Shown here: one piece after another, positions 7,393 through 62,526 of the stretch
Layout of the letters: each line of letters begins with the position of its first letter
How positions within the stretch are numbered: the first letter of the stretch is position 1
Source of the DNA: a virus
UHGV virus genome: UHGV-0209617
Length of the DNA stretch: 64,000 nucleotides
Direction: 5' to 3' (one strand)
The notes under the pieces: model-generated
Database searches by the model: none
What the model saw: only the letters and a program-made list of their open reading frames with translations
Told to the model about the DNA's origin: nothing
Program-made: the position numbers and the translations under genes

Positions 7393-7959
7393 ATGCTTAA
7401 AAGAATATTCATAATGATTATCGTGTTGCAGGCATTTTTTATAGGGGTATGCTCTGCCAATTCGGGCAGATTAGCAGATATTGGAGCAGAAGTATTTAGA
7501 GGAAAAATGGTGGAGAGTACGAATTCTTTTGTGAGTGGATTAGAAATTAAAAAGCTATCAGGAGGAATGGCAAAGCTATATCCAGGAACAACATTATATA
7601 CATTTTTTATGTTTGATAATTTGAATACAGATAAAGTTGTCAGTGTTTCGGTATTTGTAAATCAAGAAGGTTATATTGATGCTATAGGCGTAGCTGGCTC
7701 AGGAGCAAGTGAAAGCAGTAGAGCGTTTTCGACAAATATTGTGGAAGAGTCTATGAGGGCTATTGGTTTAAGTAATGATGACATTAACTGCTTGACAACT
7801 AAAGGTATACAAGGGAAAAAATATCAAGGGGTAGTTTTTTCTGAAAATATGGGTAGAGACGTTTATTATACATTTTGGATGGGACCTAATGCTGTCCATT
7901 CAAGTATTATAGATAGAATGTCTTATACGAATAGGGGTAATTTGTTTAGAGCAAGTTAG
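7393..7959 (+). CDS. Secreted protein, paralog family member 2
   Basis: MLKRIFIMIIVLQAFFIGVCSANSGRLADIGAEVF...FVNQEGYIDAI...GRDVYY; conserved ~70-nt upstream leader shared with the copy at 3781. Confidence 0.7.
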   Translation: MLKRIFIMIIVLQAFFIGVCSANSGRLADIGAEVFRGKMVESTNSFVSGLEIKKLSGGMAKLYPGTTLYTFFMFDNLNTDKVVSVSVFVNQEGYIDAIGVAGSGASESSRAFSTNIVEESMRAIGLSNDDINCLTTKGIQGKKYQGVVFSENMGRDVYYTFWMGPNAVHSSIIDRMSYTNRGNLFRAS

Positions 7960-14298: not shown

Positions 14299-15349
14299 AT
14301 ATATAGGAAACAAATCAAAGCTGACTCCATACATTCTTGATAGGGTGGAACAGCTTATTGGAAAAACAGGAATTGTTGCTGACATTATGGCTGGAACAGG
14401 AACTGTGGCATTAGAATTGAGAAAAGCAGGTTATTCGGTTATCGCATCTGATGTAATGACCTATTCGTACCATCATTTGATGGTTAATCTTTGCTTAGAT
14501 TCAGCTCCTTCTTTTTCTGGGCTTGTGAATCATGGAGCAATAGGCAAGAATGAGGTGGATGCATATGGTGCAATCCTGACTTATTTAAATTGCATTGAAC
14601 CCAAAGAAGGTTTTTTCTTCAAGGAATTTTCTCCGGGTGGAACACCGCAGAATGGTTGCGACCCGAGAAAATATTTCACTACGGAAAATGCAAAGAAAAT
14701 TGATGCGATTAGAGAAAAAATAAATGAGTGGATTGATAATGGATATGTGAGCAAAGCTGAAGAATCGCTTTTAAAACATACTCTTATTATGGCAGTAAAC
14801 GAGGTTGCCAATATATCTGGAACTTACGGATATTTTTTGGCTGATTTCAAAAAGAATGCCAATGCACAGATTGATTTAAAACCTGTGGAATTTTGTTCTG
14901 TGAATTCAACTGGTCACATGGTAAAATTGGGATTTGCTGAAAATTTAGCTGCAACAATTACAGTTGATTTGTGCTACATCGACCCTCCGTATATGAAGAG
15001 ACAGTATGCTGCGAATTATCATATTCTGGAAACCATTGCACGAGGAGATTTCCCTGATGCTGTTGGTAAAAGTGGCTTGCGTGACTGGTGGGAGCAGCAC
15101 TCTAAATTGTGTACCAAAACACGAGGATTACAATCGTTTGAAAAGATATTAGGTGATATGCATTGCCCGAAATTTCTGATTAGCTACAGTGAGGATGGTT
15201 TGTTTACGCTGGGGCAATTAGAAGAATGTTTTAGCAAGTTTGGAACTGTTGACGTTCAAGAAATTGATTACAATCGATTTAGAAGCAATGATAGCAAGTT
15301 GCCTAAAAAACTGAAGGAATATTTGATTTCTATAGAAAGGCAGGTATAA
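14291..15349 (+). CDS. D12-class (Dam-like, alpha-order) N6-adenine DNA methyltransferase
   Basis: RYIGNKSKL N-terminal motif, ADIMAGTGTV (motif I), CYIDPPYM (motif IV); ATG overlaps the upstream stop (ATGTATAG). Confidence 0.85.
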   Translation: MYRYIGNKSKLTPYILDRVEQLIGKTGIVADIMAGTGTVALELRKAGYSVIASDVMTYSYHHLMVNLCLDSAPSFSGLVNHGAIGKNEVDAYGAILTYLNCIEPKEGFFFKEFSPGGTPQNGCDPRKYFTTENAKKIDAIREKINEWIDNGYVSKAEESLLKHTLIMAVNEVANISGTYGYFLADFKKNANAQIDLKPVEFCSVNSTGHMVKLGFAENLAATITVDLCYIDPPYMKRQYAANYHILETIARGDFPDAVGKSGLRDWWEQHSKLCTKTRGLQSFEKILGDMHCPKFLISYSEDGLFTLGQLEECFSKFGTVDVQEIDYNRFRSNDSKLPKKLKEYLISIERQV

Positions 15350-15353
15350 GTGA

Positions 15354-17024
15354 ATGGAGTGCATTGAAAGAATATTTTACAGAAAGATTAATCCTTCTGA
15401 TTTCAAAAAGTTGTATGATATTGACAAACCAGAAGGTGGCGGTGGTCAGACATACTTGGAAGCCGCTGGTATTTCAAATGAAAAAATCGTTGATTTCCTT
15501 TCCTATGCGGAGGTTACAAACAGTCCTTTGCCAGATGAAACAAGGTCTGTTTATACATTCAATGCCTATGTTTTGGGCGATTCAAAGGGTAAATGTTCGT
15601 TTGTAGAATTTGCACCTCGCAAAGGAAGAAATAACTATCGTATAAGCCGTCAGAACATGAAATATAAACATCCGGCATGGAGTTTGGATAATGGATTTCC
15701 CGAACCATCAAAAGGTGATGATGGCGAATACACATCTGCAGGCGATTTTGTGGGAATCATTGATAATCTTGTTATTCTTATCATAAGAACTACAAATCGG
15801 CGTTATTATGCAGGTTTTGTAAATATAGCGACAATGCCAGAGAACTGGCCACACAATATTGGCTTAGAGGGCATTTTTAGTGGTGAACGCAGAGATGTAC
15901 TAAAAATGGATGCGTATAAACTACAGTTTGTTAATGATGCCTGTAATCCATTCGGTGATTATGTCCCAACAATCGAAGAATGTAATCGAGCGACTACTGG
16001 TTGCAATGTGCTTTTGTACGGAGTTCCCGGAGCAGGAAAGAGTTGGACAATTGAACACGAATATTGTGCCGATGAAGGGTGTATGGAGCGATTGGTTTTC
16101 CATCCGGATTATATGTATTCGGATTTCGTTGGACAAATTTTGCCTGTAGTAAGGGACGATGACAAGGTTCGTTATGAGTTTACGCCGGGTCCGTTTACCA
16201 AATTATTAAAAAAAGCATATTGGAATACAGAACAGTCTTTTTACCTTATAATAGAAGAAATAAATCGTGGTAATGCACCAGCGATATTCGGTGAAATATT
16301 TCAGCTTTTGGATAGAAAAGATGAAGACGAAATAGATGAAAATAGGGAGATTCTCTACAAAAAAGGCACAAGTGAGTATGGAATAACAAATGCCAATATT
16401 GCACGAATCGTTTATGGCGATGAAAACCATAAGGTTCGAATTCCTGCAAATATGTCTATTTTGGGTACAATGAATACTTCTGACCAAAATGTTTTTACAT
16501 TAGACACAGCATTTCAGAGAAGATGGATTATGAGAATGATTCCGAATTCATTTGATAACCATAAGTTCGCAGACAAGAAGATTTTGGATACTGATATTTC
16601 CTGGAGACAGTTCTGTGAAGCAATTAATGAGGAAATTTTGCGTAGAAACAACATCACATCTTCTGAGGATAAGCGACTTGGGGCATATTTTATCTCGGCT
16701 TCGGATTTGGAGATGAAACCAATCACAGACGGGATGAGCGAAAAAGAAAAAATCCAAGTGGAGCATAGCAACAGCAGATTTGCAGAAAAAGTATTGAAAT
16801 ATTTATGGGATGATGCTTTCAAATTTTCCCATCAAGATACATTTAACACAAGACAGTTTGGTAGTCTTGAAAAAGTTATCGAAGGCTTTATGAATCCTGC
16901 CAAGCCTAAAAATGAGCGTTTTCGTGTATTCAATGAGAACCTTCGTAAAATGATTTTGGATGGAGTAACAGCAGAATCAAACGAGGTTTCTGATGATGAC
17001 AGCGAAGGCTCACAGGAATCTTAA
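15354..17024 (+). CDS. McrB-like AAA+ GTPase restriction subunit with an N-terminal domain of about 200 aa that I cannot assign
   Basis: LLYGVPGAGKSW (Walker A), LIIEEINRGNAPAIFGEIFQLLDR (McrB-type IDEINRAN-like motif), ILGTMNTSDQN (NTxD-type motif). Confidence 0.85.
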   Translation: MECIERIFYRKINPSDFKKLYDIDKPEGGGGQTYLEAAGISNEKIVDFLSYAEVTNSPLPDETRSVYTFNAYVLGDSKGKCSFVEFAPRKGRNNYRISRQNMKYKHPAWSLDNGFPEPSKGDDGEYTSAGDFVGIIDNLVILIIRTTNRRYYAGFVNIATMPENWPHNIGLEGIFSGERRDVLKMDAYKLQFVNDACNPFGDYVPTIEECNRATTGCNVLLYGVPGAGKSWTIEHEYCADEGCMERLVFHPDYMYSDFVGQILPVVRDDDKVRYEFTPGPFTKLLKKAYWNTEQSFYLIIEEINRGNAPAIFGEIFQLLDRKDEDEIDENREILYKKGTSEYGITNANIARIVYGDENHKVRIPANMSILGTMNTSDQNVFTLDTAFQRRWIMRMIPNSFDNHKFADKKILDTDISWRQFCEAINEEILRRNNITSSEDKRLGAYFISASDLEMKPITDGMSEKEKIQVEHSNSRFAEKVLKYLWDDAFKFSHQDTFNTRQFGSLEKVIEGFMNPAKPKNERFRVFNENLRKMILDGVTAESNEVSDDDSEGSQES

Positions 17025-17040
17025 AGCGAGGTGAGCGACA

Positions 17041-18321
17041 TTGGATTTAGGCTTAAACTTAAAAGTTAAATGTCATGTGAATAAAAATGGTGATGGCGAT
17101 AGGTTTGTCGGGATTAAGGCTGATGCTAATCAAGCAATGGTCTATTTTCCAATGGGGTATCGCCTGCCAGACAATGAAGAAGATATTAGGGATGATATTC
17201 TAAAATTGATTTCTGTATTAGCTGAGTTTACGGATTCAAAAGACAAGGTATTGGCTATGCAGAAATTTGAAGCACCACAGTCTGTGAATTTTCCAATCAA
17301 TGCCTATATGAATATTATCCGATACTATTTGGAACAACGTTCATATTACACAGAAAAGGATCCTATTCTAAAGACGAGTGACAGAGGAAAAATCGACTTT
17401 GCAGCATCTTTGCGTAGAAATGTTAGCTTTTTTCAAGAAGATGGAACTCCGTTTTTTGATAAATATACAGTAAAAGGGTCAACTCCTAATGATAAAAATT
17501 TAATAACTATGATTCACAAATACTGTGTGCATGAAAGTTTTGCTCAGATGGGTTGGCTGTTTATGCCGGATGTCCCACAAGATCCACATATTGAACGAAA
17601 CATTCCGCTTTTCCTCAGTGTACTGAAGAAAAAATTGGCAGTCACGCATCTTGAAAAGGATATTCTGCTATTTGAAGCAATGATTTCTATGCTGGAATAT
17701 TTGGATGAGAAAAGTGACGATAAACAATACTATTTTGGAACAGATAGATTTGAATATGTGTGGGAAAAACTGATAGATGCAGTGTTTGGCATAAAAGAAA
17801 AGAATGATTATTTTCCACGAACCTCTTGGAAACTAAACTATGGTGACCAACGAAGAAATTATGCATTAGAGCCGGACACCATAATGCTTTGTAATGGAAA
17901 AATCTATGTCATTGATGCAAAGTATTATAGATACGGTGTAACCGGTACACCTTCGCATTTGCCGGAATCATCATCTATCAACAAGCAGATTACATATGGT
18001 GAGTACATATATAATCATAAGAAATTTAAGGATGTATATGGTGATGATGTTCCTGTGTATAACGCATTCCTTATGCCGTATAACAAACAGGATAATCCAT
18101 TTCATATCAATGAGTATTTCGCCAATATTGGTGAGGCTGATAGTGACTGGAAATATGGCAATCATAATTATGAACGGGTGCAAGGAATTGTAGTTGATAT
18201 TCGTTTCTTGATGAACAATTACTATGGTTCGCACAAGAGTAAAATTATTAAGATGGCGAAGCTCATCGAGGAAGCCCTGCAGGAAAATGCAGATACGCTT
18301 CCAGAAGAAAAGACTGAATAA
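17041..18321 (+). CDS. McrC-like PD-(D/E)xK nuclease subunit (TTG start)
   Basis: ALEPDTIMLCNGKIYVIDAKYY gives PD...D-x-K; position immediately after the McrB-like gene; GAGGTGA 7 nt before the TTG. Confidence 0.75.
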   Translation: MDLGLNLKVKCHVNKNGDGDRFVGIKADANQAMVYFPMGYRLPDNEEDIRDDILKLISVLAEFTDSKDKVLAMQKFEAPQSVNFPINAYMNIIRYYLEQRSYYTEKDPILKTSDRGKIDFAASLRRNVSFFQEDGTPFFDKYTVKGSTPNDKNLITMIHKYCVHESFAQMGWLFMPDVPQDPHIERNIPLFLSVLKKKLAVTHLEKDILLFEAMISMLEYLDEKSDDKQYYFGTDRFEYVWEKLIDAVFGIKEKNDYFPRTSWKLNYGDQRRNYALEPDTIMLCNGKIYVIDAKYYRYGVTGTPSHLPESSSINKQITYGEYIYNHKKFKDVYGDDVPVYNAFLMPYNKQDNPFHINEYFANIGEADSDWKYGNHNYERVQGIVVDIRFLMNNYYGSHKSKIIKMAKLIEEALQENADTLPEEKTE

Positions 18322-18362
18322 AAAATCCGCAAGCAGTGATTATGCTGTTTGCGGATTTTTTA
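18321..18362. terminator. Bidirectional rho-independent terminator between the R-M operon and the convergent CGNR gene
   Basis: A-run, ATCCGCAAGCAG / CTGTTTGCGGAT stem, then TTTTTT. Confidence 0.65.
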
Positions 18363-19544
18363 TTTGCCCTTTTGAACTTTGATGCGATGGGAACGTTGAT
18401 TATTTGCGTTTCTACAGTTACTGCAACAATATTTATTTCTACTATTGGATGTCTTTACTAAGAAATATTTATGGCAAGAAGGATTGGCACACTTTCTATA
18501 TATTTCAGATCCGGGTTTCATGTAGAAAATAGAAAAATATAATGCAGAAAGCAATGATGGTGCCTTCCACGACGGTTCCAGTGAATTGGGACTGTAGAAA
18601 GGTTTTATACTTCTGGTATTATGATTTATTTCCCCACTTAAAACGAGTCGTGCGATAAGAGTAGCAGCCTCTTTTAATGGACTGTTAAATTTGCTGAAAT
18701 CTGGACTACTATAGTATTCAATGCCGCCCTCGAAAGTTACAGCTTTTATTACACCAACAGAATGCATATAGTGAAACAGGAATTCAACCATTAGTCGGAG
18801 CTTCTTGGATTGAATATTGTTATTCTTGTAAGCAATAGTAACCTGGCGATACAGCGTATCATTAATTCCAGGATAATCGTATGTAAATGTTTCTCCGTTT
18901 GAAATATCATCATATTCATCAGCATTTAATTCATATGAAGGAGCATAAATCATGTCTTTTACGGTAATAGATTCTGTTTCAGAGGATTGCTGTAGTGAAT
19001 CGATAGAGGCTTGATTTCTGATGCTATCATGAAATGGATGCCGATAGGTTGAATAAGTAATTCGTGCAGTGCCATTAAGCGTAACTTGTGTCCCAAGAAG
19101 CAAATACAAAGTTAAATGTAGAATCTGTTCATAATCAAGTGATGGTTTTTCCACTGCGGCCATAAGGAGAACTGTAGCCTTTATTCGATTCAAGACTTCT
19201 ACAAGCGCTACTATATCAATTTCCGTTCCTTCGGGCGAAATAGGAAGTAGATAACCATGTTCCTCGAAAAAACCAAGGACCTTTTTTACATTGGTTGCCG
19301 GAAGCGATATCAGAGAACCGAGAACATTTTTATTTTGAAGTGAACCGTGTGGAGTCGTTAAACATAAACCTCGGCTTCCGCTAAAGGCATAATTTATAAT
19401 TTCATCATTCACGGGATAGACTGTTAATATTTTATGCGCCTGCCCGTCCGTCTTTAAGACTTCTTCTATTCTAAATGTACATTTTTTGCAACTCAAAGAA
19501 AAATAATCGTTGCTAAGATTGAAAAAATTGTCTAACTCAGTCAT
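18360..19544 (-). CDS. Protein with C-terminal CGNR-type zinc finger; N-terminal ~340 aa unassigned
   Basis: C-terminus CANPSCHKYFLVKTSNSRNKYCCSNCRNANNQRSHRIK fits the CGNR zinc-finger pattern (C-x2-C ... C-x2-C-R). Confidence 0.65.
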   Translation of the reverse strand: MTELDNFFNLSNDYFSLSCKKCTFRIEEVLKTDGQAHKILTVYPVNDEIINYAFSGSRGLCLTTPHGSLQNKNVLGSLISLPATNVKKVLGFFEEHGYLLPISPEGTEIDIVALVEVLNRIKATVLLMAAVEKPSLDYEQILHLTLYLLLGTQVTLNGTARITYSTYRHPFHDSIRNQASIDSLQQSSETESITVKDMIYAPSYELNADEYDDISNGETFTYDYPGINDTLYRQVTIAYKNNNIQSKKLRLMVEFLFHYMHSVGVIKAVTFEGGIEYYSSPDFSKFNSPLKEAATLIARLVLSGEINHNTRSIKPFYSPNSLEPSWKAPSLLSALYFSIFYMKPGSEIYRKCANPSCHKYFLVKTSNSRNKYCCSNCRNANNQRSHRIKVQKGK

Positions 19545-19978
19545 AAAAAACTACTCCATATTTCCTTGCCCCTCGTAGAAGGGTCTTTTTTTATGTCGAA
19601 AAGTAAGTGATTACATAAGTAATAATGTAATTATAACGCTTACTATTGCTTGTTTCAAGCTAGTATAGTAATGAAATACACAGAAAGTAAGTGATTATAT
19701 CAGAAATTTACTTACTATACTGAAATTCTTATACTTAAAGACAGTGAAGGACAACCAAACTTTATATACAGCGGAGGTGTTTTTCACATCCCTGTTTCAA
19801 TGTTCATCGCCTGATCAGCGATGCCCAGAGCGGAGAAACGGACACAAGTAAATATCAGTCAACCCACTGGGACGGTTGGCCAGCTAAGAAATGAGGATTT
19901 CATTCTTATGGCCAATTATTATGGGAAGTTCAGTGTGGGTCCTCATTTCGGTTTTCAGACCGAAGGAGGGTCTACACG

Positions 19979-20488
19979 ATGGACAAATTTGAAAATCTAC
20001 AGACAAGCAACGAGAAGCAGTATTACATTCCTTTGGAAGTAACCGCAGAAACTATCAGAGATTTTGGCATCAACCCTAAAGATGTGGTATGGACGAGAAT
20101 CGGGAACAAGCCTAAAAAGGTTGTTATGATTCCCGTAACCGAGGAGCAGTACAAAACATTTATGCGTCCTCTGTGGCGTGAGGACAAGCGTCAGCAAAGA
20201 CAGGAGCCGATGGCATCGCTGGATAAGATGTACGAAAAAACCGAGTACGAAGCGGCTGATACCGACTCTGACCTTGAAGCGAATATTATGAAGAAAATGC
20301 TGATTGATGAGCTTCACAAGGCACTGGATGAACTGGAAGAAATCGACCGCACCATTATGAAGATGTACAGCAATAACCATAGCGAAGCCGAAATCGGACA
20401 GACTATCGGTATGAGCCAGAAGGGTGTTAATAAACGTAAGCACAAGGTGCTGCTGAAACTTAACACCAGATTGAAAGACTTCAGATAA
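19979..20488 (+). CDS. Sigma-70 region-4-like HTH protein (putative phage transcription factor)
   Basis: C-terminal EIGQTIGMSQKGVNKRKHKVLLKL HTH; GAAGGAGGG SD. Confidence 0.65.
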   Translation: MDKFENLQTSNEKQYYIPLEVTAETIRDFGINPKDVVWTRIGNKPKKVVMIPVTEEQYKTFMRPLWREDKRQQRQEPMASLDKMYEKTEYEAADTDSDLEANIMKKMLIDELHKALDELEEIDRTIMKMYSNNHSEAEIGQTIGMSQKGVNKRKHKVLLKLNTRLKDFR

Positions 20489-20502
20489 GGGATAATACCC
20501 TG

Positions 20503-20541
20503 CCTGCTCTGCCACAGCATTATCCGGTGGAGCAGGTTTTT
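20503..20541 (+). terminator. Rho-independent terminator candidate
   Basis: CCTGCTC ... GAGCAGG stem then TTTTT, 15 nt after the stop. Confidence 0.5.
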
Positions 20542-20562
20542 ATATTGTTTTCAAAAAATAGT

Positions 20563-20629
20563 GGTTCTTAAAACAACCGTATATGTCCTTTCACTCTCAG
20601 AGGGGCAAACAAGGCACCTCGGAAAGGAC
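20563..20629 (+). promoter_or_regulatory. Conserved leader element copy 1 (GGTTCTTAAAAC ... GTCCTTTCACTCTCAGAGGGG ... GAAAGGAC)
   Basis: Same blocks recur at 25507-25571; TCCTTTC and GAAAGGA can pair as a stem. Confidence 0.45.
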
Positions 20630-20807
20630 GGTGTCAAACGATGACAACCAGATGTAGAACAGGCACGAGGGGCTGCGGCAGTCAGGAACTCGACCGAGAG
20701 TTATCTGATGCGCTTATCGCAATCAGTGTCGTGTCAAAAAGAATCGCTGACCGTATTACAGCAGTCAGCGGCAGAGAAAAAAAAGAATATGGAAGGAGGA
20801 AGCCTAA

Positions 20808-21170
20808 ATGGGAAAGATGAACGAGTTGTCTATGCTCACAGAGGAACTTCGCAAATGTGGTGAAACGCTTATCAGCATTTCAGAGGAATTGGCGGGTATG
20901 TTCAGCGGCTCTGCGGAAGAAAAGCAGCCTGTCAAAAAGAGTGCTGCTAAGAATAAAGCCGCCGAGGCGACGAAGCCAGAAGCGCCGAAGAAAAAGGCTC
21001 TCACGCTGGAAGATGTCCGTGCCGTGTGTGCAGACAAATCCCGCAGTGGTTTTACGGCAGAAGTCAAAGCAATCCTGAATAAGCACGGTGTGGAAAAGCT
21101 GTCGGAGGTTAATCCAGCAGAATATAAGGCACTGCTTGCTGAAGTGGAGGTGCTGGGAAATGCCGGATAA
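20808..21170 (+). CDS. Hypothetical phage protein (120 aa, lysine- and alanine-rich middle)
   Basis: ORF with GAAGGAGG SD. Confidence 0.55.
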   Translation: MGKMNELSMLTEELRKCGETLISISEELAGMFSGSAEEKQPVKKSAAKNKAAEATKPEAPKKKALTLEDVRAVCADKSRSGFTAEVKAILNKHGVEKLSEVNPAEYKALLAEVEVLGNAG

Positions 21171-22332
21171 ACAGAAGGTGAATTGCACCGCAGGTGCAAG
21201 AGAGGCTGGCCTGGGCCACGCAGTTTTATCAGCATCATCCAGTCACCGCTGGCTTGCCTGCCCTCCTTCGGCTTTGCTTTGTGCGAAAGTCGGAGATACC
21301 ATAAGCGAGTTTGCTATGCAGGGTACCGATGCCCACAGCCTTTGCGAACATAAGGTGAAAACAGCATTGGGGCAGCAGTCGAAAGACCCTACAGAGAATT
21401 TAACGTTCTTTGACGAGGAGATGGCAGACTGTTCCGATATGTATGCTCAGTATGTGATGGAGCAGCTTGGGGCGGCAAAGGAAAAGTGCAAAGACCCAAT
21501 CGTTCTGATTGAACAGCGTCTTGATTTTTCCAAGTGGGTACCGCAGGGGTTCGGCACCGGGGACTGTGTCATTGTAGCTGATGAAACGCTGACAATCATT
21601 GACATGAAATACGGAGTCGGGATTCTTGTTTACGCAGAGAAAAATCCGCAAATGATGTGTTACGCATTGGGAGCTTTGGCGCTGTTTGATGGGATTTACG
21701 ATATAACACAGGTATCAATGACAATCTTCCAGCCGCGAAGAGACAATGTCAGCACATACACCATTTCTAAAGTAGAACTTCTGAAATGGGCGGATGAGGT
21801 GCTTGCTCCGACCGCACAGCTTGCAGCCAAGGGAGAAGGAGAATACAAGGCCGGAGACCACTGCCAGTTCTGCAAGGTCAAAGCCAAGTGTCGCAAAAGA
21901 GCCGAATACAACCTGGAACTTGCCCGTTATGATTTTGAAATGCCTTCCACCCTTGAAGACGATGAGATTGAGGCCATTTTAGAAAAAGCAGACGCGCTGG
22001 TATCCTGGGCGGGCGATGTCAAGGAATATGCATTGCAGCAGGCAGTCAGCGGCAAGCAGTGGAAAGACTGGAAGATTGTCGAAGGACGCTCCAACAGGAA
22101 GTATGTAAATGAAACAGCCGTGGCAGATACGGTCAAGGATGCAGGTTATGACCCGTTTGAACATAAGGTTCTGGGGATTACCGCAATGACCAAACTACTC
22201 GGCAAGGCAAAATTTGAAGAATTGCTCTCCGGGTTTATTGAAAAAACACAGGGCAAGCCAACATTGGTACCTATGTCGGACAAACGTCCGGCAATGAATA
22301 CAGCAGCTAACGATTTTAAGGAGGACAACTAA
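21160..22332 (+). CDS. DUF2800-type PD-(D/E)xK nuclease (Cas4/RecB-like, with Cys cluster)
   Basis: SASSSHRWLACP N-terminal motif, IIDMKYG, C-terminal CQFCKVKAKC cysteine cluster. Confidence 0.75.
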   Translation: MPDKQKVNCTAGAREAGLGHAVLSASSSHRWLACPPSALLCAKVGDTISEFAMQGTDAHSLCEHKVKTALGQQSKDPTENLTFFDEEMADCSDMYAQYVMEQLGAAKEKCKDPIVLIEQRLDFSKWVPQGFGTGDCVIVADETLTIIDMKYGVGILVYAEKNPQMMCYALGALALFDGIYDITQVSMTIFQPRRDNVSTYTISKVELLKWADEVLAPTAQLAAKGEGEYKAGDHCQFCKVKAKCRKRAEYNLELARYDFEMPSTLEDDEIEAILEKADALVSWAGDVKEYALQQAVSGKQWKDWKIVEGRSNRKYVNETAVADTVKDAGYDPFEHKVLGITAMTKLLGKAKFEELLSGFIEKTQGKPTLVPMSDKRPAMNTAANDFKEDN

Positions 22333-22333
22333 T

Positions 22334-22900
22334 ATGTCAAAGAATTACACAAATCCTACCAAGGTAATCACAGGAGTCAATACTCGTTGGTCTTACGCAA
22401 ATGTGTGGGATCCGAAATCCATCAACGGCGGTGCACCGAAGTACAGCGTGAGCCTTATCATTCCGAAGTCTGATACCGCAACGGTAAACAAGATAAAGGC
22501 AGCTATCCAGTCTGCTTATGAAGAGGGCGAATCCAAGCTGAAGGGCAATGGCAAGAGTGTACCTGCTCTTTCCATTATTAAGACCCCTCTTCGTGATGGT
22601 GATTTGGAGCGTCCGGATGATGTAGCGTATGCAGGCTGTTACTTCGTCAATGCCAACTCTGCAACTGCTCCCGGTATTGTTGACGCAGAACGTCAGCCGA
22701 TTCTTGACCGCAGTGAGGTATACAGCGGTGTGTATGGCCGTGCATCCATCAACTTCTATGCCTTCAATTCCAATGGGAATAAGGGTATCGCCTGCGGTCT
22801 TAATAACCTGCAGAAGATCCGTGATGGTGAGCCTCTTGGTGGAAAGAGCCGTGCCGAGGACGATTTTGCTACCGATGCAGATGAAGATTTTCTCGCATAA
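22334..22900 (+). CDS. DUF2815-type phage protein (SSB-like, usually partnered with DUF2800 and DNA polymerase)
   Basis: Size, position and sequence character fit my recollection of this family; AAGGAGGA SD. Confidence 0.6.
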   Translation: MSKNYTNPTKVITGVNTRWSYANVWDPKSINGGAPKYSVSLIIPKSDTATVNKIKAAIQSAYEEGESKLKGNGKSVPALSIIKTPLRDGDLERPDDVAYAGCYFVNANSATAPGIVDAERQPILDRSEVYSGVYGRASINFYAFNSNGNKGIACGLNNLQKIRDGEPLGGKSRAEDDFATDADEDFLA

Positions 22901-23127
22901 GGAGGACGGCTTATTATGACAACCATTCAGAGTATGATGCTGTGTGTTTCGGTGCCGTGATGGGAACTTTCATTGCAGATGTGGGGTTTCTCATCAAGTG
23001 TGTCATTGACAAGCACAAGGAGAAAAAGAGTAAGAAAAAAGAAGAGTCTGCTGATAAGGCAGAGTAAATGACAGCGGGCGGCGTAGGTGTATTCTTCGCC
23101 GCCTTGCTTATATGAAGGAGTGACAAT

Positions 23128-25119
23128 ATGGGAAAAATACAAACATTGTCCTTGGACTTGGAGACTTATTCTGATGTGGATTTGCAGAAGTGCGGGGTCT
23201 ATAAATATGCCCAGTCTCCTAATTTTGAAATTCTGCTATTTGGTGTATCCGTAAATGGCGGTGCGGTTGTGGTCTATGACCTGGCACAGGGCGATACCGT
23301 GCCGATTGAAATTATCAAAGCACTGACCGATGAAACCGTAACCAAATGGGCATATAATGCGGCTTTCGAGAGAATCTGTTTGTCAGTGTGGCTGCAGAGA
23401 AACTACCCGGAATATTTTTGCAGTTACAGCATCAATGAGGATACTGTCGGGGATTATCTGGATCCTTCTGCCTGGAAATGCTCCATGATATGGGCGGCAT
23501 ACATGGGACTGCCGTTATCCCTTGCGGGAGCCGGCACGGTGTTGGGATTGGAGGAACAGAAACTCAAGGAGGGCAAAGACCTTATAAGGTATTTCTGTGT
23601 TCCCTGCAAGCCGACCAAAGTGAACGGCGGCAGGACACGCAATCTGCCGGAGCATGATATGGAGAAATGGAATACCTTCGTTTTATATAACAAGCGAGAT
23701 GTGGAAGTGGAGACGTCCATACAGGACAAACTAAAAAAATTCCCTGTGCCGGATTTTGTGTGGGATGAGTACCACCTCGACCAGGAAATCAACGACCGTG
23801 GGATTGCTCTTGATATGGCGGTAGTGGAGAATGCCATTGCTTTTGATGCAAAATCCAAGGCGGAACTGGCAGAGAAAATGCAGGAACTGACTGACCTTGA
23901 TAACCCAAACTCCGTGGTACAGATGAAGCAGTGGCTATTGGATAACGGTTTGGAGATGGACAGCCTTGGAAAAAAGAAAGTAGCACAGGCGATAAAAACT
24001 GCTCCGAAGGAACTGGCGGAGGTTCTGCAGCTGCGACAACAATTATCCAAGTCCTCCGTAAAAAAGTATCAGGCAATGCAGAATGCTGTCTGTGAGGATG
24101 GCAGAGCCAGAGGGATGTTTCAGTTTTACGGGGCAAACAGAAGCGGCAGATGGGCAGGCAGAATGATACAGCTGCAAAATCTGCCTCAGAACCATATGCC
24201 GGATTTGGAACAGGCACGAGGACTGGTGAAGTCTGGTAATTACGCAGCGATGGAACTCTTATATGATGATATCCCCGATACTCTATCGCAGCTTATCCGC
24301 ACTGCCTTTGTGCCGAGACCGGGTATGAAATTTGTCGTGGCGGACTTCTCGGCAATTGAAGCAAGGGTGCTGTCGCATCTTGCAAAAGAAAACTGGCGAA
24401 CAGAAGTCTTTGCAAATAACAGGGATATTTATTGTGCATCGGCATCAGCCATGTTCGGTGTTCCTGTGGAAAAACATGGTGTCAACGGAAACCTCCGTCA
24501 AAAGGGCAAAATTGCTGAATTGGCTCTGGGCTACGGCGGTTCAGTCGGTGCTTTGAAAGCAATGGGTGCCATTGATATGGGACTTTCCGAAGAGGAATTA
24601 CAGCCACTGGTGGATTCTTGGAGAGCCGCCAACCCTAACATTGTGAAGTTCTGGTGGGAGGTTGACCGATGTGTCAAGGAAACTGTGAAAAAGAGAGTGC
24701 CGACCGAAACGCATGGCATCCGTTTTATCTATCAGAGCGGGATGCTTTTTATCAAGCTCCCTTCCGGCAGACAGCTTTCCTATGTGAAGCCTCGCATGGG
24801 AGAAAACCGTTTTGGCGGTGAGTCCGTAACCTATGAAGGTGTCGGAGGTACAAAGAAATGGGAACGCATCGAAAGTTATGGTCCAAAGTTTGTGGAAAAT
24901 ATCGTGCAGGCAATCAGCAGGGACATTTTGGCGCATTCCATGAGAACCTTGTCGCACTGCTTTATCTGCGGTCATGTGCATGATGAATTGATTATTGAGT
25001 GTAGTATGGGAGTTTCCCTTGATGCCGTGTGTGAACAGATGGGCAGGACTCCGGCCTGGATACCGGGTCTGCTTCTCCGTGCAGATGGGTACGAATGCAG
25101 CTTCTATAAAAAAGATTAA
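23128..25119 (+). CDS. Family A DNA polymerase (phage type, with 3'-5' exonuclease domain)
   Basis: LSLDLETYS (exo I), DFSAIEARV (motif A), RQKGKIAELALGYGG (motif B), VHDELIIE (motif C). Confidence 0.9.
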   Translation: MGKIQTLSLDLETYSDVDLQKCGVYKYAQSPNFEILLFGVSVNGGAVVVYDLAQGDTVPIEIIKALTDETVTKWAYNAAFERICLSVWLQRNYPEYFCSYSINEDTVGDYLDPSAWKCSMIWAAYMGLPLSLAGAGTVLGLEEQKLKEGKDLIRYFCVPCKPTKVNGGRTRNLPEHDMEKWNTFVLYNKRDVEVETSIQDKLKKFPVPDFVWDEYHLDQEINDRGIALDMAVVENAIAFDAKSKAELAEKMQELTDLDNPNSVVQMKQWLLDNGLEMDSLGKKKVAQAIKTAPKELAEVLQLRQQLSKSSVKKYQAMQNAVCEDGRARGMFQFYGANRSGRWAGRMIQLQNLPQNHMPDLEQARGLVKSGNYAAMELLYDDIPDTLSQLIRTAFVPRPGMKFVVADFSAIEARVLSHLAKENWRTEVFANNRDIYCASASAMFGVPVEKHGVNGNLRQKGKIAELALGYGGSVGALKAMGAIDMGLSEEELQPLVDSWRAANPNIVKFWWEVDRCVKETVKKRVPTETHGIRFIYQSGMLFIKLPSGRQLSYVKPRMGENRFGGESVTYEGVGGTKKWERIESYGPKFVENIVQAISRDILAHSMRTLSHCFICGHVHDELIIECSMGVSLDAVCEQMGRTPAWIPGLLLRADGYECSFYKKD

Positions 25120-25131
25120 AGCATAAAAAAT

Positions 25132-25157
25132 GGAGAGACGAAATAAATCGTCTCTCC
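25132..25157. terminator. Perfect 9-bp hairpin GGAGAGACG-AAATAAAT-CGTCTCTCC with an A-run on its 5' side
   Basis: Read directly; no T-run on the plus strand, so it is oriented to stop leftward transcription or to act as a structured site. Confidence 0.4.
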
Positions 25158-25506
25158 TGAAAGTCCAATCGGTTTGAGCATCTGTGAGAGGCTTGATTGG
25201 TTCTGTCAAATCCCAAAATGCAAGGAGAGCCGGATTTCTCTGACTCTCTCAAGTATGTATCCTTGAATACATACCCCAATTAGTGTCCATATTATACAGC
25301 TTCCGTTCGAAATATGCAAGACCTAAATGAAATTTTTCAAGGCAGACATTCGTGCTGATAAATCCGGATGAATGACGATTGCTGCTACTGCGGGATTGAC
25401 GGATATTTTATAGTCATCTGTGATTTTCTCAAATTCTCGAATGAAGGCCTTTATTTCGGTTTTGGCATATGTAGCAATTTTAAGAGCAAAAAAAGATTAA
25501 AAATAC

Positions 25507-25571
25507 GGTTCTTAAAACGCAGGGTTTTGTCCTTTCACTATCAGAGGGCAAGACCCTACTTTTATGAAAGG
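25507..25571 (+). promoter_or_regulatory. Conserved leader element copy 2; 3' arm overlaps the SD of the Rha gene
   Basis: GGTTCTTAAAAC ... GTCCTTTCACTATCAGAGGG ... GAAAGG; CCTTTCA can pair with TGAAAGG, which includes the SD. Confidence 0.45.
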
Positions 25572-25581
25572 CGGTATTTTT

Positions 25582-26247
25582 ATGAAAGAATTGATACCCA
25601 AAGACGAATACGGCATCTTTGCCGATGCACATGACACCGCAAGAGTAGACAGCTTGTTTGTAGCGGAGTTTTTTGAGAAGAACCATAAAGAGGTGCTGCG
25701 AGATATCCGCAAAATCACTGACCCCACATCCGGGTTAAGTGAAGAATTCCGACAGCGCAATTTTGCGCCGTCCTCATACACCAACAACCAGAATAAAAAG
25801 CAGCCGTGCTACTGCATGACTCGTGATGGATTCACAATGTTGGCAATGGGATATACCGGGCAAAAGGCAATGAAGTTCAAAGAACTGTACATTCACAGAT
25901 TTAATGAGATGGATGCTTTTATTAAGAACCTGGTATCTGCAAGACAGGAGTTTCCTCTTCTGACTGAAAATATCAAACTGCTCCATGACAAGCCGAAGCC
26001 TTACCACTTCAGCAATGAGTGCGATATGTTAAACCGCATCGTGCTTGGTATGACGGCAAAGCAGTTCAGACTTGCCAATAACATCGAAAAAGGCAAAAGT
26101 ATCAGACCGTATCTGACCAAAGAACAAATTGAGATGCTGGAAATCCTGCAGAAAGTTGATGTGGGTCTGCTCGTAGCATTCCCTGCTTACGAAGACAGAA
26201 AACGCCATCTTGAATGGTACAAAACCAAATTAGAGGAGGACAAATAA
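25582..26247 (+). CDS. Rha family phage regulatory protein
   Basis: DTARVDSLFVAEFFEKNHKEVLRDIRKI matches the Rha N-terminal domain. Confidence 0.8.
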   Translation: MKELIPKDEYGIFADAHDTARVDSLFVAEFFEKNHKEVLRDIRKITDPTSGLSEEFRQRNFAPSSYTNNQNKKQPCYCMTRDGFTMLAMGYTGQKAMKFKELYIHRFNEMDAFIKNLVSARQEFPLLTENIKLLHDKPKPYHFSNECDMLNRIVLGMTAKQFRLANNIEKGKSIRPYLTKEQIEMLEILQKVDVGLLVAFPAYEDRKRHLEWYKTKLEEDK

Positions 26248-26249
26248 AG

Positions 26250-26474
26250 ATGTTTTATGTGAAAGAACAGCTGAATGATGCGATGGAGGTTTCCATTGAA
26301 ATTAACGATGAGAATGTATTCTGCCGCTGCCCGTCCTGCGGGTCTGAGGTACAGGTTGACCTGGCAAAGGTATTTTCCGATGGTGACGGTGATCTGTTTG
26401 GCACATCGGTACTTTGCGACAGCTGCAGCAGAAAAATGATGGGAGGAAAGCCTTGTGGGAGTGAACAGGTATAA
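26250..26474 (+). CDS. Small zinc-ribbon protein
   Basis: CRCPSCG...CDSC four-cysteine ribbon; GAGGAGGA SD. Confidence 0.55.
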   Translation: MFYVKEQLNDAMEVSIEINDENVFCRCPSCGSEVQVDLAKVFSDGDGDLFGTSVLCDSCSRKMMGGKPCGSEQV

Positions 26475-26886
26475 CAGCGAGGGTTATCCTGCTCCGACCA
26501 CCTATGTGGCACTCACTTCCATCGAAAAAGAAACGAAAGCGGCAAGAGCGTACAGACCGATTGTGTATGTATGCTCTCCGTTTTCCGGAGATATTGCCGG
26601 GAACATTGCAAATGCACGAAAGTACAGTCGATTTGCTGTAGAGCAGGGGTATATCCCCATTGCTCCGCATTTGCTGTTTCCGCAGTTTCTTAATGATAAC
26701 GATTTAAGGTCACGTGAGCTGGGGCTTCATTTTGGAAATGTGCTGATGAGCCATTGCAGCGAGGTTTGGGTGTTCGGAGAAATTGTATCAGCCGGAATGG
26801 ATGCTGAAATCAGGAGAGCCAAAAGAAAAAATTACAGGCTGCGCTACTTTGGCAGTGATTTGAAGGAGGTTACAGAAAATGCGTGA
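26455..26886 (+). CDS. DUF4406-like (nucleoside 2-deoxyribosyltransferase-like) phage protein, GTG start
   Basis: RPIVYVCSPFSGD...GYIPIAPHLLF...CSEVWVFGE pattern; family name recalled with moderate certainty. Confidence 0.5.
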   Translation: MGVNRYNSEGYPAPTTYVALTSIEKETKAARAYRPIVYVCSPFSGDIAGNIANARKYSRFAVEQGYIPIAPHLLFPQFLNDNDLRSRELGLHFGNVLMSHCSEVWVFGEIVSAGMDAEIRRAKRKNYRLRYFGSDLKEVTENA

Positions 26887-29209
26887 TTTGAGTATTGCCT
26901 ATGGGAACGGCAGGACGGCAAAATTCTGGTCGAATAAAACGATTCGATTTGATGAATTATGTGACCGCCTGCGCAGTCCTATTTATACTTCGGAAACGGC
27001 AGAGGAATATCCGAAACTGCCCAAAGGTCAGCGTGATGATATCAAGGACAAAGGCGGATTTGTTGCCGGACATTTGCGTGATAACCGCAGACAGGCAAAT
27101 AAAGTGGTGTGCCGTTCTATGTTGGTGTATGACCTTGACAGCATCGAAGCAGAGTTTTTGAAGGACATCGGCAGCAAAATTTCCAACAAGGGATGCTATT
27201 ACACTACCCACAGCCATACCCCGGAGCATCCGAGGGCGAGAATGATTATTCCGGTCAGCCGTGATATGTCTCCGGATGAGTTCAATGCGGCTGCAAGATA
27301 TTATGCCCAAGATAACGGCTTTATCAGTATGCTTGATCCGTGTTCGTTTTCTCCACATCAGCTGATGTATTGGCCGACCTGTTCGTCCAATGGAGAATAC
27401 CTCTTTGACACAATAGACGGTGGCTGGCTTGACCCAGATACGATTTTTGCGAAGCATCCTAATTGGAGAGATTGTTCGCTGCTTCCTACCACACCGAAGG
27501 AGAGTAAGGCATCCGACCATAATGTAAAACAGCAGAAAGACCCGCTTGAAAAAGAGGGGGTGGTCGGTCTGTTCAACCGTGTTTATTTCCCTATCAGCAC
27601 GGCAATTGATGAGTTCCTTCAAGGTGTATATGAGCCGACCGCAGATACCTCCGGCAGATATGATTTTATCCCCGGCGAGGGTTCTGCGGGTGTTGTAATT
27701 TATGATGATAAATTCTCCTACAGCCACCATGCAACTGACCCTGCAGGCGGTAAACTGTGCAATGCCTTTGACCTTGTCCGCCTTCATAAATTCAGTGAGG
27801 ACGATGAGAAAAAATCCTATAAGCAGATGTGCGAGTTTGCCATGACCCTTGATAAAGTCAAACTGCAGGATCTTGAGGAAAAGAAACAAAGGGCAGCAGA
27901 TGATTTTTCGGAGAATGCCAACTGGCAGACCAAACTTCGCTATATGCCAAGAAGCAAGTGCCTGGAAAACAGCGTGTGGAATCTGATGCTGATATTAAAC
28001 AATGACCCGGATTTTGCAAATATTGCCTTCAATGAACTGGTAGGCAGAGTGCAGATTACGGGTGCCATTCCGTGGACAAGACCCAGTGACAATAAGTTCT
28101 GGAGGGATGCGGATACAGCACAGCTGAAGGCACTCATTGACATTCGTTATGAAACTTTCTCAAGCAGAAACCATGATGTGGCTTTTACTAAGGTGGTTGA
28201 GGACAGACATTTCAATCCCCTTCGTGATTGGCTTGACGCATTGCCAGAATGGGATGGTGTGGTAAGGCTTGAAAATCTGTATATCGATTTTCTTGGTGCG
28301 AATAACACGGTATATGTTAAGGCTGCGACCAGAAAATCCTTTGTGGCGGCTGTAGCGAGAATTTACGAGCCGGGTACAAAGTTTGATTCGGTTGTTGTAT
28401 TGGTGGGTCCGCAGGGCTGTGGTAAGTCTACGATTTTTGCAAGGATGGGAAATGAGTATTATTCCGACAGCTTGAATCTGACGGATATGAAGGACAAGAG
28501 CGGTGCGGAGAAACTGCAGGGATACTGGATTTTGGAACTAGGCGAACTGGCAGGACTCAAAAAAGCGGATGTTGAGGTAGTGAAAGCCTTTGTCAGCCGT
28601 ACCGATGATATTTACCGCCCTTCCTATGGTAGAACGATTGAAAGCCACCCAAGGCAGTGCATTATTGTGGGGACAACAAACTCGGAGTCCGGCTTTCTGC
28701 GTGATATTACGGGAAACCGCAGATTCTGGCCTATTAAGGTCACAGGTGTCAGCAAAAGAAAATCATGGGATATGACTGATGAAGAAGTCCTGCAAATGTG
28801 GGCGGAGGCAAAGTACCTGTATGGGCAGGGCGAGCCTTTGTATCTGAATTCGCAGGAAAGCAGTGAAGCATTGAGCGAACAGATTGATGCAATGGAAAGC
28901 GATGAGCGCCAGGGCATAGTCGAGGAGTACTTAAATACACTTCTGCCGGATAACTGGAACAGCATGGATCTGTATGAGAGAAGGAATTTTCTGACAGACA
29001 GCGCTTCGGCAAAGGGTACGGTACAAAGAAAGACCGTAAGCAATGCGGAAATATGGAGCGAGTGTTTTTGCAGAAACTTGTCCGACCTCAAGCCCTCTGA
29101 CTCCTATGCGATAGCTGCCCTTATGACCAAAGTGGACGGTTGGCAGAGAACCGACAAAATCAGAAAGCTTGCCATCTATGGAAGGCAGAGGATTTACGAG
29201 AGGTTGTGA
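26879..29209 (+). CDS. VirE-family (virulence-associated protein E) phage primase/helicase-like P-loop NTPase
   Basis: VLVGPQGCGKST Walker A; 776 aa; position in the replication module. Confidence 0.8.
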   Translation: MRDLSIAYGNGRTAKFWSNKTIRFDELCDRLRSPIYTSETAEEYPKLPKGQRDDIKDKGGFVAGHLRDNRRQANKVVCRSMLVYDLDSIEAEFLKDIGSKISNKGCYYTTHSHTPEHPRARMIIPVSRDMSPDEFNAAARYYAQDNGFISMLDPCSFSPHQLMYWPTCSSNGEYLFDTIDGGWLDPDTIFAKHPNWRDCSLLPTTPKESKASDHNVKQQKDPLEKEGVVGLFNRVYFPISTAIDEFLQGVYEPTADTSGRYDFIPGEGSAGVVIYDDKFSYSHHATDPAGGKLCNAFDLVRLHKFSEDDEKKSYKQMCEFAMTLDKVKLQDLEEKKQRAADDFSENANWQTKLRYMPRSKCLENSVWNLMLILNNDPDFANIAFNELVGRVQITGAIPWTRPSDNKFWRDADTAQLKALIDIRYETFSSRNHDVAFTKVVEDRHFNPLRDWLDALPEWDGVVRLENLYIDFLGANNTVYVKAATRKSFVAAVARIYEPGTKFDSVVVLVGPQGCGKSTIFARMGNEYYSDSLNLTDMKDKSGAEKLQGYWILELGELAGLKKADVEVVKAFVSRTDDIYRPSYGRTIESHPRQCIIVGTTNSESGFLRDITGNRRFWPIKVTGVSKRKSWDMTDEEVLQMWAEAKYLYGQGEPLYLNSQESSEALSEQIDAMESDERQGIVEEYLNTLLPDNWNSMDLYERRNFLTDSASAKGTVQRKTVSNAEIWSECFCRNLSDLKPSDSYAIAALMTKVDGWQRTDKIRKLAIYGRQRIYERL

Positions 29210-31568: not shown

Positions 31569-31782
31569 AGGTATAGAAAATCTCCGTAATGCTATCATCC
31601 TTCAGGCAGTAAATGATTTGAAGAGAGCGTACAGAAACCTAAAGAGGAATCCAGACAGCGTACAGCTGAAGGCTGCTGCAGAATACGAGGAGAGGTTCTT
31701 CAGTTCCAAATGGTACAAGACCCTTACCACGATTGATGGCAGTATGGTGGTAGCCCATGTAAGAGAGGAGGCAGGCTTATGA
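31558..31782 (+). CDS. Hypothetical small phage protein (probable GTG start)
   Basis: ORF overlapping the SNF2 3' end; GGAGGTGA upstream. Confidence 0.45.
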   Translation: MSDKGIENLRNAIILQAVNDLKRAYRNLKRNPDSVQLKAAAEYEERFFSSKWYKTLTTIDGSMVVAHVREEAGL

Positions 31783-32222
31783 CAGCAAAAGAATACTTGA
31801 GTCAGGCATTCCTGCTGAACGAACAGATAAACACAAAGCTTGAGCAGGTCAGTGCCTTGAGGCATCTTGCCACAAAGACCTGCACACCTATAAACGATAT
31901 GCCGGGTTCTCCAACAAAGCGTGTTGATGGAATGGAGGAAACCATAATCAAGATGGTTACCTTAGAGAATGAAATCAATGCAGACATCGATAAGCTGGTG
32001 GATTTGAAGGTTGAAATAACACGGCTCATCAACAAGGTGAGCAAGGTTGAATGCAGACTGCTCCTGGAGAAAAGATATCTCTGCATGGAAGCATGGGAGG
32101 TTATAGCAGCGGGGCTTAATTACAACCTGAGGTATATCCACAAACTGCACAGCAAAGCATTATCTTCTTTTGATGAAGTCATGGCAGAATATAAAGTAGA
32201 CACCAAAGGGCACTATTTGTGA
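31779..32222 (+). CDS. Putative late-gene transcriptional activator (sigma-region-4-like HTH; ArpU/RinA-type position)
   Basis: Small protein just upstream of HNH, terS and terL with an HTH-like C-terminus. Confidence 0.5.
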   Translation: MTAKEYLSQAFLLNEQINTKLEQVSALRHLATKTCTPINDMPGSPTKRVDGMEETIIKMVTLENEINADIDKLVDLKVEITRLINKVSKVECRLLLEKRYLCMEAWEVIAAGLNYNLRYIHKLHSKALSSFDEVMAEYKVDTKGHYL

Positions 32223-60203: not shown

Positions 60204-60228
60204 ATAAGCACGGTTGGAGGTGATTGCC

Positions 60229-62458: not shown

Positions 62459-62526
62459 CTTATATGCCAAATAGTAGTTGAATAATATCGCAAACAGAGT
62501 GATATATAGTGTCGGAGGTGATGAGC

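Follow-up and report, generated by a model that had tools for sequence, protein, structure and literature searches.

Phage sigma factors with middle or late promoters of their own are known from the Bacillus phage SPO1 (gp28, gp33/34) and from T4 (gp55), where a phage product redirects the host RNA polymerase to a phage consensus that stands before successive operons. The late activators RinA/ArpU/Alt of Firmicutes siphoviruses are small proteins with a sigma region 4-like helix-turn-helix (HTH), which switch on a phage transcription unit. In E. coli, the promoters of sigmaE consist of GGAACTT at a preferred distance of 16 nucleotides (nt) from TCAAA, which has a G before it, together with an A/T-rich UP region and a discriminator of 5-6 nt (PMC1312014); their elements are also given as 'GGAACTT' and 'GTC' (PMC6648896). 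Here we describe a two-box element in a 64,000-nt stretch of the virus genome UHGV-0209617, which is called the window below. The element, GGTTCTTAAAAC-N10-GTCCTTTCACT[C/A]TCAGAGGG, is present twice on the plus strand (20563-20604 and 25507-25548, copies 1 and 2) in the early/replication part of a Clostridia-type prophage. We think it likely that it is a DNA promoter which the phage uses three times and which is read via the phage's 169-amino-acid (aa) sigma-like protein; the transcription starts and the binding are what we infer from the sequence. The three copies are very probably middle promoters that depend on this protein.

Like the promoters of the extracytoplasmic function (ECF, group 4) sigma factors, the element has two short boxes at a strict spacing, with the G of GTC 22 nt after the first G of the upstream box. 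A GTC opens its downstream box, an A/T-rich tract lies upstream, and the candidate factor is small, with a C-terminal half that matches sigma70-ECF. Unlike them, it has GGTWCTT without AAC in box 1, the conservation of box 2 extends over about 20 nt, and the factor is phage-borne, placed in a temporal cascade and without a detectable sigma region 2. No anti-sigma gene was noted beside the sigma-like gene, no specific search for one having been made. With SPO1 and T4 the locus would share the redirection of host RNA polymerase to a phage consensus, and we propose that here too expression begins with the factor gene, which a terminator insulates. In contrast to these phages, the consensus is unrelated, the protein belongs to a different, uncharacterised family, the phages are a family of temperate prophages in gut anaerobes, and xis and int lie behind one of the promoters. 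RinA/ArpU/Alt act at one site before packaging genes, whereas the present element occurs three times, not before terminase, and heads the replication, regulatory and integration modules; a gene of the RinA/ArpU/Alt kind, DUF1492/ArpU-like, is present in the window as well. To our knowledge, none of the sigma-70, sporulation, FliA-type and TcdR-type consensus promoters fits the boxes or their spacing, and a text search of the literature for the motif strings found no description of the consensus.

An earlier note on this DNA had reported the repeat at the two positions given above; both copies were confirmed there, and a third was added. The 20-mer of box 2 (up to 3 mismatches) occurs in the window at copies 1 and 2 only, with 0 occurrences expected from 100 shuffles. 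The 12-mer of box 1 alone is not significant (9 matches at up to 2 mismatches against 5.5 expected), and therefore the signal is the bipartite unit. A two-box scan at the exact spacing returned one further match in the window, the diverged copy 3, which differs at 4 of 23 scored positions. By our estimate such a match would arise by chance about 0.004 times per window, and copy 3 scored 9.7 bits in nhmmer. Its position, before a phrog_2308 gene, is syntenic with that of the third copies of related phages.

Across the relatives we used the motif GGTWCTTAA-N13-GTCCTnTnACT. The exact 20-mer of box 2 was found in 52 IMG/VR loci, and the degenerate form GGTWCTTAA-N13-GTCCTNTNACT in at least 120 IMG/VR loci among the matches listed, on contigs of gut-Firmicutes phages; the motif is also present in prophages of Clostridia, Negativicutes and Enterococcus. 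A prophage search with the sigma-like protein, with one genome per species, gave 49 loci, whose hosts include Eubacteriaceae, Acetobacterium, Ruminococcus, Megasphaera, Veillonella, Acidaminococcus, Enterococcus, Parvimonas, Peptostreptococcus and Selenomonas. Where the context is intact and the ortholog shares at least 38% identity, the motif without exception lies 50-80 nt past the stop of the sigma-like gene, and a second copy follows about 4.5 kb on. The phage GenBank collection offered only distant relatives, 72-78% identical across parts of the region, whose annotation was of no use, and a metagenome scan with the sigma-like profile yielded only relatives of at least 58% identity, which added no diversity. 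The most distant sigma-like relatives (30-34% identity; L171-L174 at about 7620-7720 and L259-L261), from Desulfosporosinus, Youngiibacter and a Sphaerochaeta metagenome-assembled genome, have a different recognition helix and no such motif. After the terminator they carry a repeat array of the type AGTTCYnTAGCCYCAACC, with a box 2-like unit, GTTCTGTATACTCGCAGAGC, between the repeats.

Three syntenic classes cover 145 of the 154 sites in the fetched loci, and all of these lie on the same strand, between genes, at the heads of operons. Class A (53 sites) stands directly downstream of the sigma-like gene, after its terminator, and before a small open reading frame (ORF) or a 120-aa ORF. Class B (73 sites) follows directly past the DNA polymerase (polA) gene and precedes Rha or another gene, and class C (19 sites) follows a terminator and precedes a gene for an HTH/zinc-ribbon (HTH-Zn) protein in a module with xis and int. 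The spacer measured 10 nt in 131 of 131 unique sites, which places the box starts 22 nt apart; classes A and C put no constraint on its sequence. All classes have an A/T-rich stretch 5' of box 1, formed in classes A and C by the T-run of an intrinsic terminator. For these two classes a terminator hairpin with its T-run was found 12-45 nt upstream in at least 62 of 80 unique sites, a count made with a crude script, and most of the sites that it missed show visible terminators. After box 2 come a short hairpin, whose 5' arm begins at box 2 position 14-16, a ribosome-binding site and a start codon. The arms of this leader hairpin vary jointly across lineages by eye (GAGG/CCTC, GAAGG/CCTTC, CTGAA/TTCAG, TTCAAA/TTTGAG); within the class A subset there were no double changes. 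The class A spacer was also considered as a partner of sequence further downstream (ACC/GGT), but this pairing was inconsistent among lineages, judged partly by eye, and was rejected. The earlier note had offered a phage-specific promoter, a protein-binding site or an RNA switch, and it is the first two of these that the evidence favours.

The same arrangement bears on the notion that the copies are recombination or module-boundary repeats around the polymerase module that have nothing to do with expression. Copies 1 and 2 are indeed direct repeats that border a 4.9-kb DUF2800-SSB-polymerase module, the genes downstream of class B vary among phages (Rha, VirE and others), and a 378-bp insertion adjoins copy 2. 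This notion leaves unexplained, however, the bipartite build with a free spacer of fixed length, the constant orientation, the placement between terminator and ribosome-binding site and the concerted change with the sigma-like protein described below, and we regard it as highly improbable.

How, then, would a promoter of this kind work? Box 1 (GGTWCTTAA) would serve as the -35-like element and GTCCT, with which box 2 opens, as the -10-like one, and both would be read by RNA polymerase that carries, or is recruited by, the sigma-like protein, whose gene lies just upstream and would be insulated by its own terminator. GGTWCTT-N15-GTC with an A/T-rich stretch upstream is the register of the E. 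coli sigmaE promoters, and box 1 matches 6 of the 7 positions of GGAACTT. Because the geometry is sigmaE-like, the start of transcription is predicted at about position 12-15 of box 2, just before the leader hairpin; this would be around 20596-20599 for copy 1 (P_A), 25540-25543 for copy 2 (P_B) and 61779-61782 for the third copy. Each mRNA would thus begin with the short hairpin, followed by the ribosome-binding site (GAAAGG). P_A would drive the recombination and DNA polymerase operon, P_B the operon of Rha, primase and helicase, and copy 3 (P_C) the module of HTH/zinc-ribbon protein, xis and int. In the regions of the copies in the window, no sigma-70-type promoter was found between the terminators and the downstream genes. 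With a terminator upstream and no such promoter, something at the element must therefore start transcription. Two more findings concern the boxes themselves. Position 4 of box 1 (A or T) is the same within the genome in 29 of 34 multi-site loci, and box 2 is conserved even where it could take part in no RNA structure, for example where the ribosome-binding site is directly adjacent to it (loci L081 and L166).

The Selenomonas-type family offers a natural variant of both partners. Its sigma-like protein shares 36% identity, with the helix SKTAVHKRK against SQKGVNKRK, and both copies in each genome read GGTGACC-N15-GTCCGCT in the same register. Both sites and the recognition helix of the sigma-like protein have thus been altered in concert, which is the strongest support for a promoter. 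The variant occurs at two places per genome (L166 at 7525 and 13678; L168; L255-L258). In this family the sigma-like ORF appears to run through the first copy, with 211 aa and no stop at the usual place.

The protein itself carries a sigma-70 region 4 HTH at residues 110-161 (Pfam Sigma70_r4_2, E 2e-6) and matches the NCBIfam sigma70-ECF model over positions 70-165 (E 9.5e-11). Its homologues are annotated as 'RNA polymerase sigma factor', and a match to the ArpU model is weak (E 8.5e-4, below the cutoff). The N-terminal domain is conserved, and Foldseek with the structural model returned no significant match in the PDB. Several observations weigh against the promoter as we propose it. Sigma region 2 is not recognisable in the protein, and its N-terminal 95 residues have no Pfam match. 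AlphaFold gave a weak model (pLDDT 63) with beta strands in the N-terminal part, and a sequence search of the PDB found only region 4 of FliA/SigF. Since only region 4 was found, the protein may be an activator rather than a true sigma factor, or box 2 may be read by another factor. Box 1 lacks the AAC core that is typical of an ECF -35 element, and box 2 is conserved to position 20, beyond what a -10 element needs. The co-variation of protein and site comes from essentially one independent divergent family. Finally, box 2 can pair with the ribosome-binding site in class A and joins a covarying hairpin in class B, and may have a role at the RNA level.

The restriction to region 4 also speaks for an operator or activator site. 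Here the two boxes would be a tandem direct repeat (GTyCTT ... GTCCTT, 22 bp, about two helical turns) at which an HTH regulator, be it a dimer of the sigma-like protein, Rha or the HTH-Zn protein, activates or represses a promoter of the host sigma factor. Box 1 (GGTTCTT) and box 2 (TGTCCTT) do agree in 5 of 6 core bases. However, no class shows a sigma-70-like -35/-10 pair beside the element, the conserved block fills the whole interval from terminator to leader, and the Selenomonas-type boxes (GGTGACC and GTCCGCT) are unlike each other. We consider such a site quite unlikely.

We now turn to RNA structure. The earlier note had proposed that CCTTTC pairs with GAAAGG downstream; the distance between the two is 35 nt in copies 1 and 2 alike. 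This pairing is possible in copy 1, where GUCCUUUC and GAAAGGAC with an inner hairpin fold at -18.8 kcal/mol (z -2.0). In the read-through RNA of copy 2, AGAGGG of the terminator-like hairpin described below already pairs with CCTTTC. In the 29 class A sequences the stem is 95% paired, but there are 0 compensatory changes and the covariation score is 0.068 against 0.071 in shuffles. Across lineages, T at position 6 of box 2 gives way to A or G, in most cases while the ribosome-binding site does not change to match. Many copies have GGAGG as their ribosome-binding site, or one that abuts box 2 with no gap (L081, L166). GAAAGG is conserved as a ribosome-binding site and CCTTTC as a part of box 2. 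With the predicted start at box 2 positions 12-15, CCTTTC would lie outside the mRNA. Two other statements concerned the genes: the 3' arm in copy 2 is, as had been suggested, the Shine-Dalgarno sequence of Rha, for which the ATG listed in Table 1 is the most likely start, and a conserved small ORF, which precedes the ORF at 20808, is the gene that comes first downstream of copy 1.

These data leave little room for an RNA leader switch, in which transcribed box 2 would serve as an anti-Shine-Dalgarno sequence (copy 1) or as a terminator arm (copy 2), to be opened by a phage protein that binds GUCCUnUnACU or by another signal. Besides the copy 1 fold, predicted accessibility points in its direction: the ribosome-binding site of the class A small ORF is unpaired at about 0.0 in RNA that begins at box 1, at about 1.0 in RNA from box 2 position 13 and at 0.4-0.55 with shuffled upstream sequence. 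Class B copies of the L001 type behave like the class A small-ORF copies, and the class B hairpin covaries, with U-G pairs in the plus sense only. The accessibility effect is not seen in other lineages, however. The lack of compensatory changes in the stem, the uncompensated variants at box 2 position 6 and the many ribosome-binding sites that are GGAGG or directly adjacent to box 2 all count against a switch, which also leaves the strict 10-nt distance to box 1 unexplained. Class A and C copies come right after strong terminators with no other promoter, so that box 2 would rarely be transcribed. A search of Rfam at the gathering score and at E up to 5 placed no family on the element; a Histone3 match on the minus strand (20539-20583), below the gathering score, is a chance match. 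Compared with Shine-Dalgarno-sequestering leaders such as riboswitches and RNA thermometers, copy 1 is alike in that CCUUUC could pair with GAAAGG 35 nt downstream, and unlike in that there is no covariation, no ligand or sensor architecture and no Rfam match, and transcription probably begins downstream of the pyrimidine stretch. Taken as the explanation of the element, a switch seems improbable to us.

The situation differs at copy 2, whose box 2 is enclosed by a terminator-like hairpin in which AGGGTTTTGTCCTTT pairs with AGAGGGCAAGACCCT around the loop CACTATC, followed by the tail ACTTTTAT. It is the best plus-strand terminator-like site within 19400-27000 (-21.5 kcal/mol, z -5.0). Among 30 class B sequences the helix covaries, with 52 double-change cells against 24.5 in shuffles and a score of 0.292 against 0.175, as high as in 0 of 500 shuffles and well above all slid controls. 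One side of the helix is formed by the spacer together with the 5' half of box 2, the other by the 3' end of box 2 and the bases that follow. The outer stem is paired at 0.74 in class B compared with 0.33 in classes A and C, which have separate terminators upstream. The hairpin-type class B copies have T-rich tails, and in them the spacer pairs with the sequence directly past box 2; in the L001-type lineage it pairs just before the start codon instead. The hairpin of copy 2 is probably the terminator of the DNA polymerase operon, overlapping the next promoter. At P_B the polymerase gene would have had no space behind it for a terminator of its own, and the spacer and the sequence past box 2 may have evolved into hairpin and U-tract. 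Read-through RNA would fold the hairpin and stop, whereas RNA started at P_B would hold the 3' arm only and continue.

A hairpin past a linear box also recalls the nut sites of lambda. Box 1 could be boxA-like, for NusB/NusE, and box 2 a boxB-like hairpin for a phage N-like protein. Box 1 resembles what we take to be the lambda nutL boxA plus spacer (CGCTCTTAAAAA) and the Firmicute rrn boxA (GTTCTTTGAAAAC), box 2 is an imperfect palindrome (TCCTTT...AGAGGG), and the hairpin follows box 1 in class B. The likeness extends to the linear box, the gap of about 10 nt, the hairpin-capable unit and the repetition at the heads of phage operons. In contrast to nut sites, the class A and C copies stand 12-45 nt past terminator T-runs, not between a promoter and a terminator, and have no promoter upstream. 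Their inner stem loses a pair whenever position 6 of box 2 is A or G. Only class B keeps the hairpin, and there its U-tract gives it the look of a terminator. Half of the copies have GGTACTT as box 1 and the divergent family has GGTGACC, both further from boxA, and no N-like protein was identified here. Nut-like antitermination is thus very unlikely in our estimation. We judge that the promoter is clearly more probable than each of these rivals, be it an RNA operator, a site for a non-sigma regulator, a nut-like site or a recombination boundary.

Promoter and RNA structure could, however, both be functional. The predicted accessibility of the ribosome-binding site, about 0 in RNA with the upstream parts compared with 0.5-1.0 in RNA from position 13, suggests that read-through RNA might be silenced, an effect confined to some lineages. 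The element could then work at two levels, as a DNA promoter and, through the spacer and the 5' half of box 2, as an RNA insulator or operator that closes upstream transcripts, by a terminator in copies of the copy 2 type or a blocked ribosome-binding site in those of the copy 1 type and the L001-type class B copies, such that only RNA started by the factor is elongated and translated. We hold this extension of the promoter to be unlikely. In its radical version, the N-terminal domain of the sigma-like protein would bind box 2 RNA, which would make the protein an initiation factor and an antiterminator or translation activator in one.

The features of the three copies and of their surroundings are collected in Table 1.

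Table 1. Positions of the proposed promoters, RNA structures and genes in the 64,000-nt window
Feature	Position	Strand	Remarks
DUF2800 RNA (Rfam RF02960)	19792-19945	+	81.8 bits; gathering score 60.2
Sigma-like protein gene	19979-20488	+	169 aa
Intrinsic terminator of the sigma-like gene	20502-20545	+	12-bp stem 20502-20513/20526-20537, then U-run
Copy 1 (P_A), box 1, GGTTCTTAAAAC	20563-20574	+	proposed -35-like; consensus GGTWCTTAA
Copy 1 (P_A), box 2, GTCCTTTCACTCTCAGAGGG	20585-20604	+	GTCCT proposed as -10-like
Leader hairpin	20600-20620	+	GAGGGGC 20600-20606 with GCACCTC 20614-20620; directly past predicted start
Shine-Dalgarno of small ORF, GGAAAGGA	20621-20628	+	includes GAAAGG
Copy 1 GAAAGG	20622-20627	+	
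Small Cys/Arg-rich ORF (MTTRCRTGT...)	20641-20820	+	59 aa; first gene of proposed P_A operon
Copy 2 (P_B), box 1, GGTTCTTAAAAC	25507-25518	+	in relatives about 10 nt past DNA polymerase stop
Terminator-like hairpin around box 2 of copy 2	25521-25565	+	15 contiguous pairs (25521-25557)
Copy 2 (P_B), box 2, GTCCTTTCACTATCAGAGGG	25529-25548	+	
Copy 2 GAAAGG	25566-25571	+	
Rha Shine-Dalgarno, GAAAGGCGG	25566-25574	+	7 nt before ATG 25582
Rha-family regulator gene	25582-26247	+	Pfam Phage_pRha E 8.7e-36; phrog_2657; first gene of proposed P_B operon
DUF1492/ArpU-like gene	31779-32222		before HNH and terminase genes
Intrinsic terminator upstream of copy 3	61698-61737	+	14-bp stem and TATTTTTTGT; -19.9 kcal/mol, z -4.3
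Copy 3 (P_C), diverged, GGTTCTAAAAAT-GGTTCTTGTT-GTCCTTGTACTGTTGAGGTG	61746-61787	+	two-box scan at exact spacing
HTH (sigma region 4-like) and zinc-ribbon gene	61893-62270	+	phrog_2308, E 8e-37
Excisionase-like ORF	62509-62751	+	ORF list
Tyrosine integrase	62735 to window end	+	ORF list

The terminator of the sigma-like gene folds at -23.7 kcal/mol (RNAfold; z -4.5). The leader that contains the DUF2800 RNA belongs to the sigma-like gene; the RNA does not immediately precede the DUF2800 gene, and it may control the expression of the proposed promoter-reading factor. The small ORF (MTTRCRTGTRGCGSQELDRELSDALIAISVVSKRIADRI...) encodes a protein with a Cys/Arg-rich N-terminus that is conserved in many phages (phrog_3280, E 2.7e-5). 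Its frame is kept across phages with coding-like substitutions, its Shine-Dalgarno sequence lies 10-13 nt 5' of the conserved ATG in all class A small-ORF copies, and its 3' end shares 13 nt with the beginning of the ORF that follows. The proposed P_A operon continues with the 120-aa ORF, a DUF2800 nuclease, an Enc34-type single-stranded DNA-binding protein (SSB) and DNA polymerase, which ends at 25119. The Rha start is conserved in relatives (ATGAAAGAATTGATACC), and the proposed P_B operon continues with DUF7768, a VirE primase, VRR-NUC, an SNF2 helicase and the DUF1492/ArpU-like regulator, after which come HNH and terminase. The HTH-Zn gene, the excisionase-like ORF and the integrase presumably form the P_C operon.

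Copy 2 is separated from the DNA polymerase stop by the 378-bp insertion mentioned above (25120-25497), where relatives have about 10 nt. It is bordered by a duplicated AAAAAAGATTAAA and contains, on the minus strand, a terminator-like hairpin (25132-25157), an Rfam abiF RNA match (25164-25200, 43.3 bits) and the 3' fragment of an ORF without a start (...TYAKTEIKAFIREFEKITDDYKISVNPAVAAIVIHPDLSARMSALKNFI*). The insertion, which had no match in the phage collection, resembles what would be left of an accessory gene that had entered here. Neither DUF2800 nor abiF is mentioned in the main text of Weinberg 2017. Past copy 3 (61796-61892), GAGGTGAAGAATCATGACGGA corresponds to the sequence with which the HTH-Zn gene of relatives opens, its ribosome-binding site and initial codons (MTD...), and leads into an ORF of 15 codons. 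About 97 nt further on, at 61893, the complete HTH-Zn gene begins with a ribosome-binding site of its own, an arrangement that points to an insertion in the leader or to a recombination joint. A pair resembling the AbiEi/AbiEii toxin-antitoxin (60214-61664; a regulator-like ORF and a nucleotidyltransferase, assigned from translations alone) is located between copy 3 and the lysis genes and ends at the terminator at 61698. To the left of the early region is a defence-type cluster (12643-18321, likewise assigned from translations alone) with a type IIG-like methyltransferase/endonuclease (12643-14298), a DNA methylase (14276-15349), an McrB-like AAA protein (15354-17024) and an McrC-like protein (17041-18321). 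On the side of this cluster, a CGNR zinc-finger protein is encoded on the minus strand (18360-19544).

The element is most likely a further example of a familiar phage strategy of gene timing. If confirmed, it would yield a promoter consensus, and the factor that probably reads it, for a family of temperate phages that is very widespread in Firmicutes of the human gut and the rumen and whose hosts include Ruminococcus, Enterocloster, Lachnospiraceae, Eubacterium, Veillonella, Acidaminococcus, Megasphaera and Enterococcus. If the promoter is real, copy 2 would be a compact design in which the loop of a terminator holds the -10 box of the next promoter. There would be at least two orthogonal pairs of factor and promoter (GGTWCTT/GTCCT and GGTGACC/GTCCGCT), possible tools in anaerobes that are hard to engineer. 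The element would point to an uncharacterised sigma-like family with a new N-terminal domain, and the early, middle and late programme of these phages could be annotated from their sequences alone.

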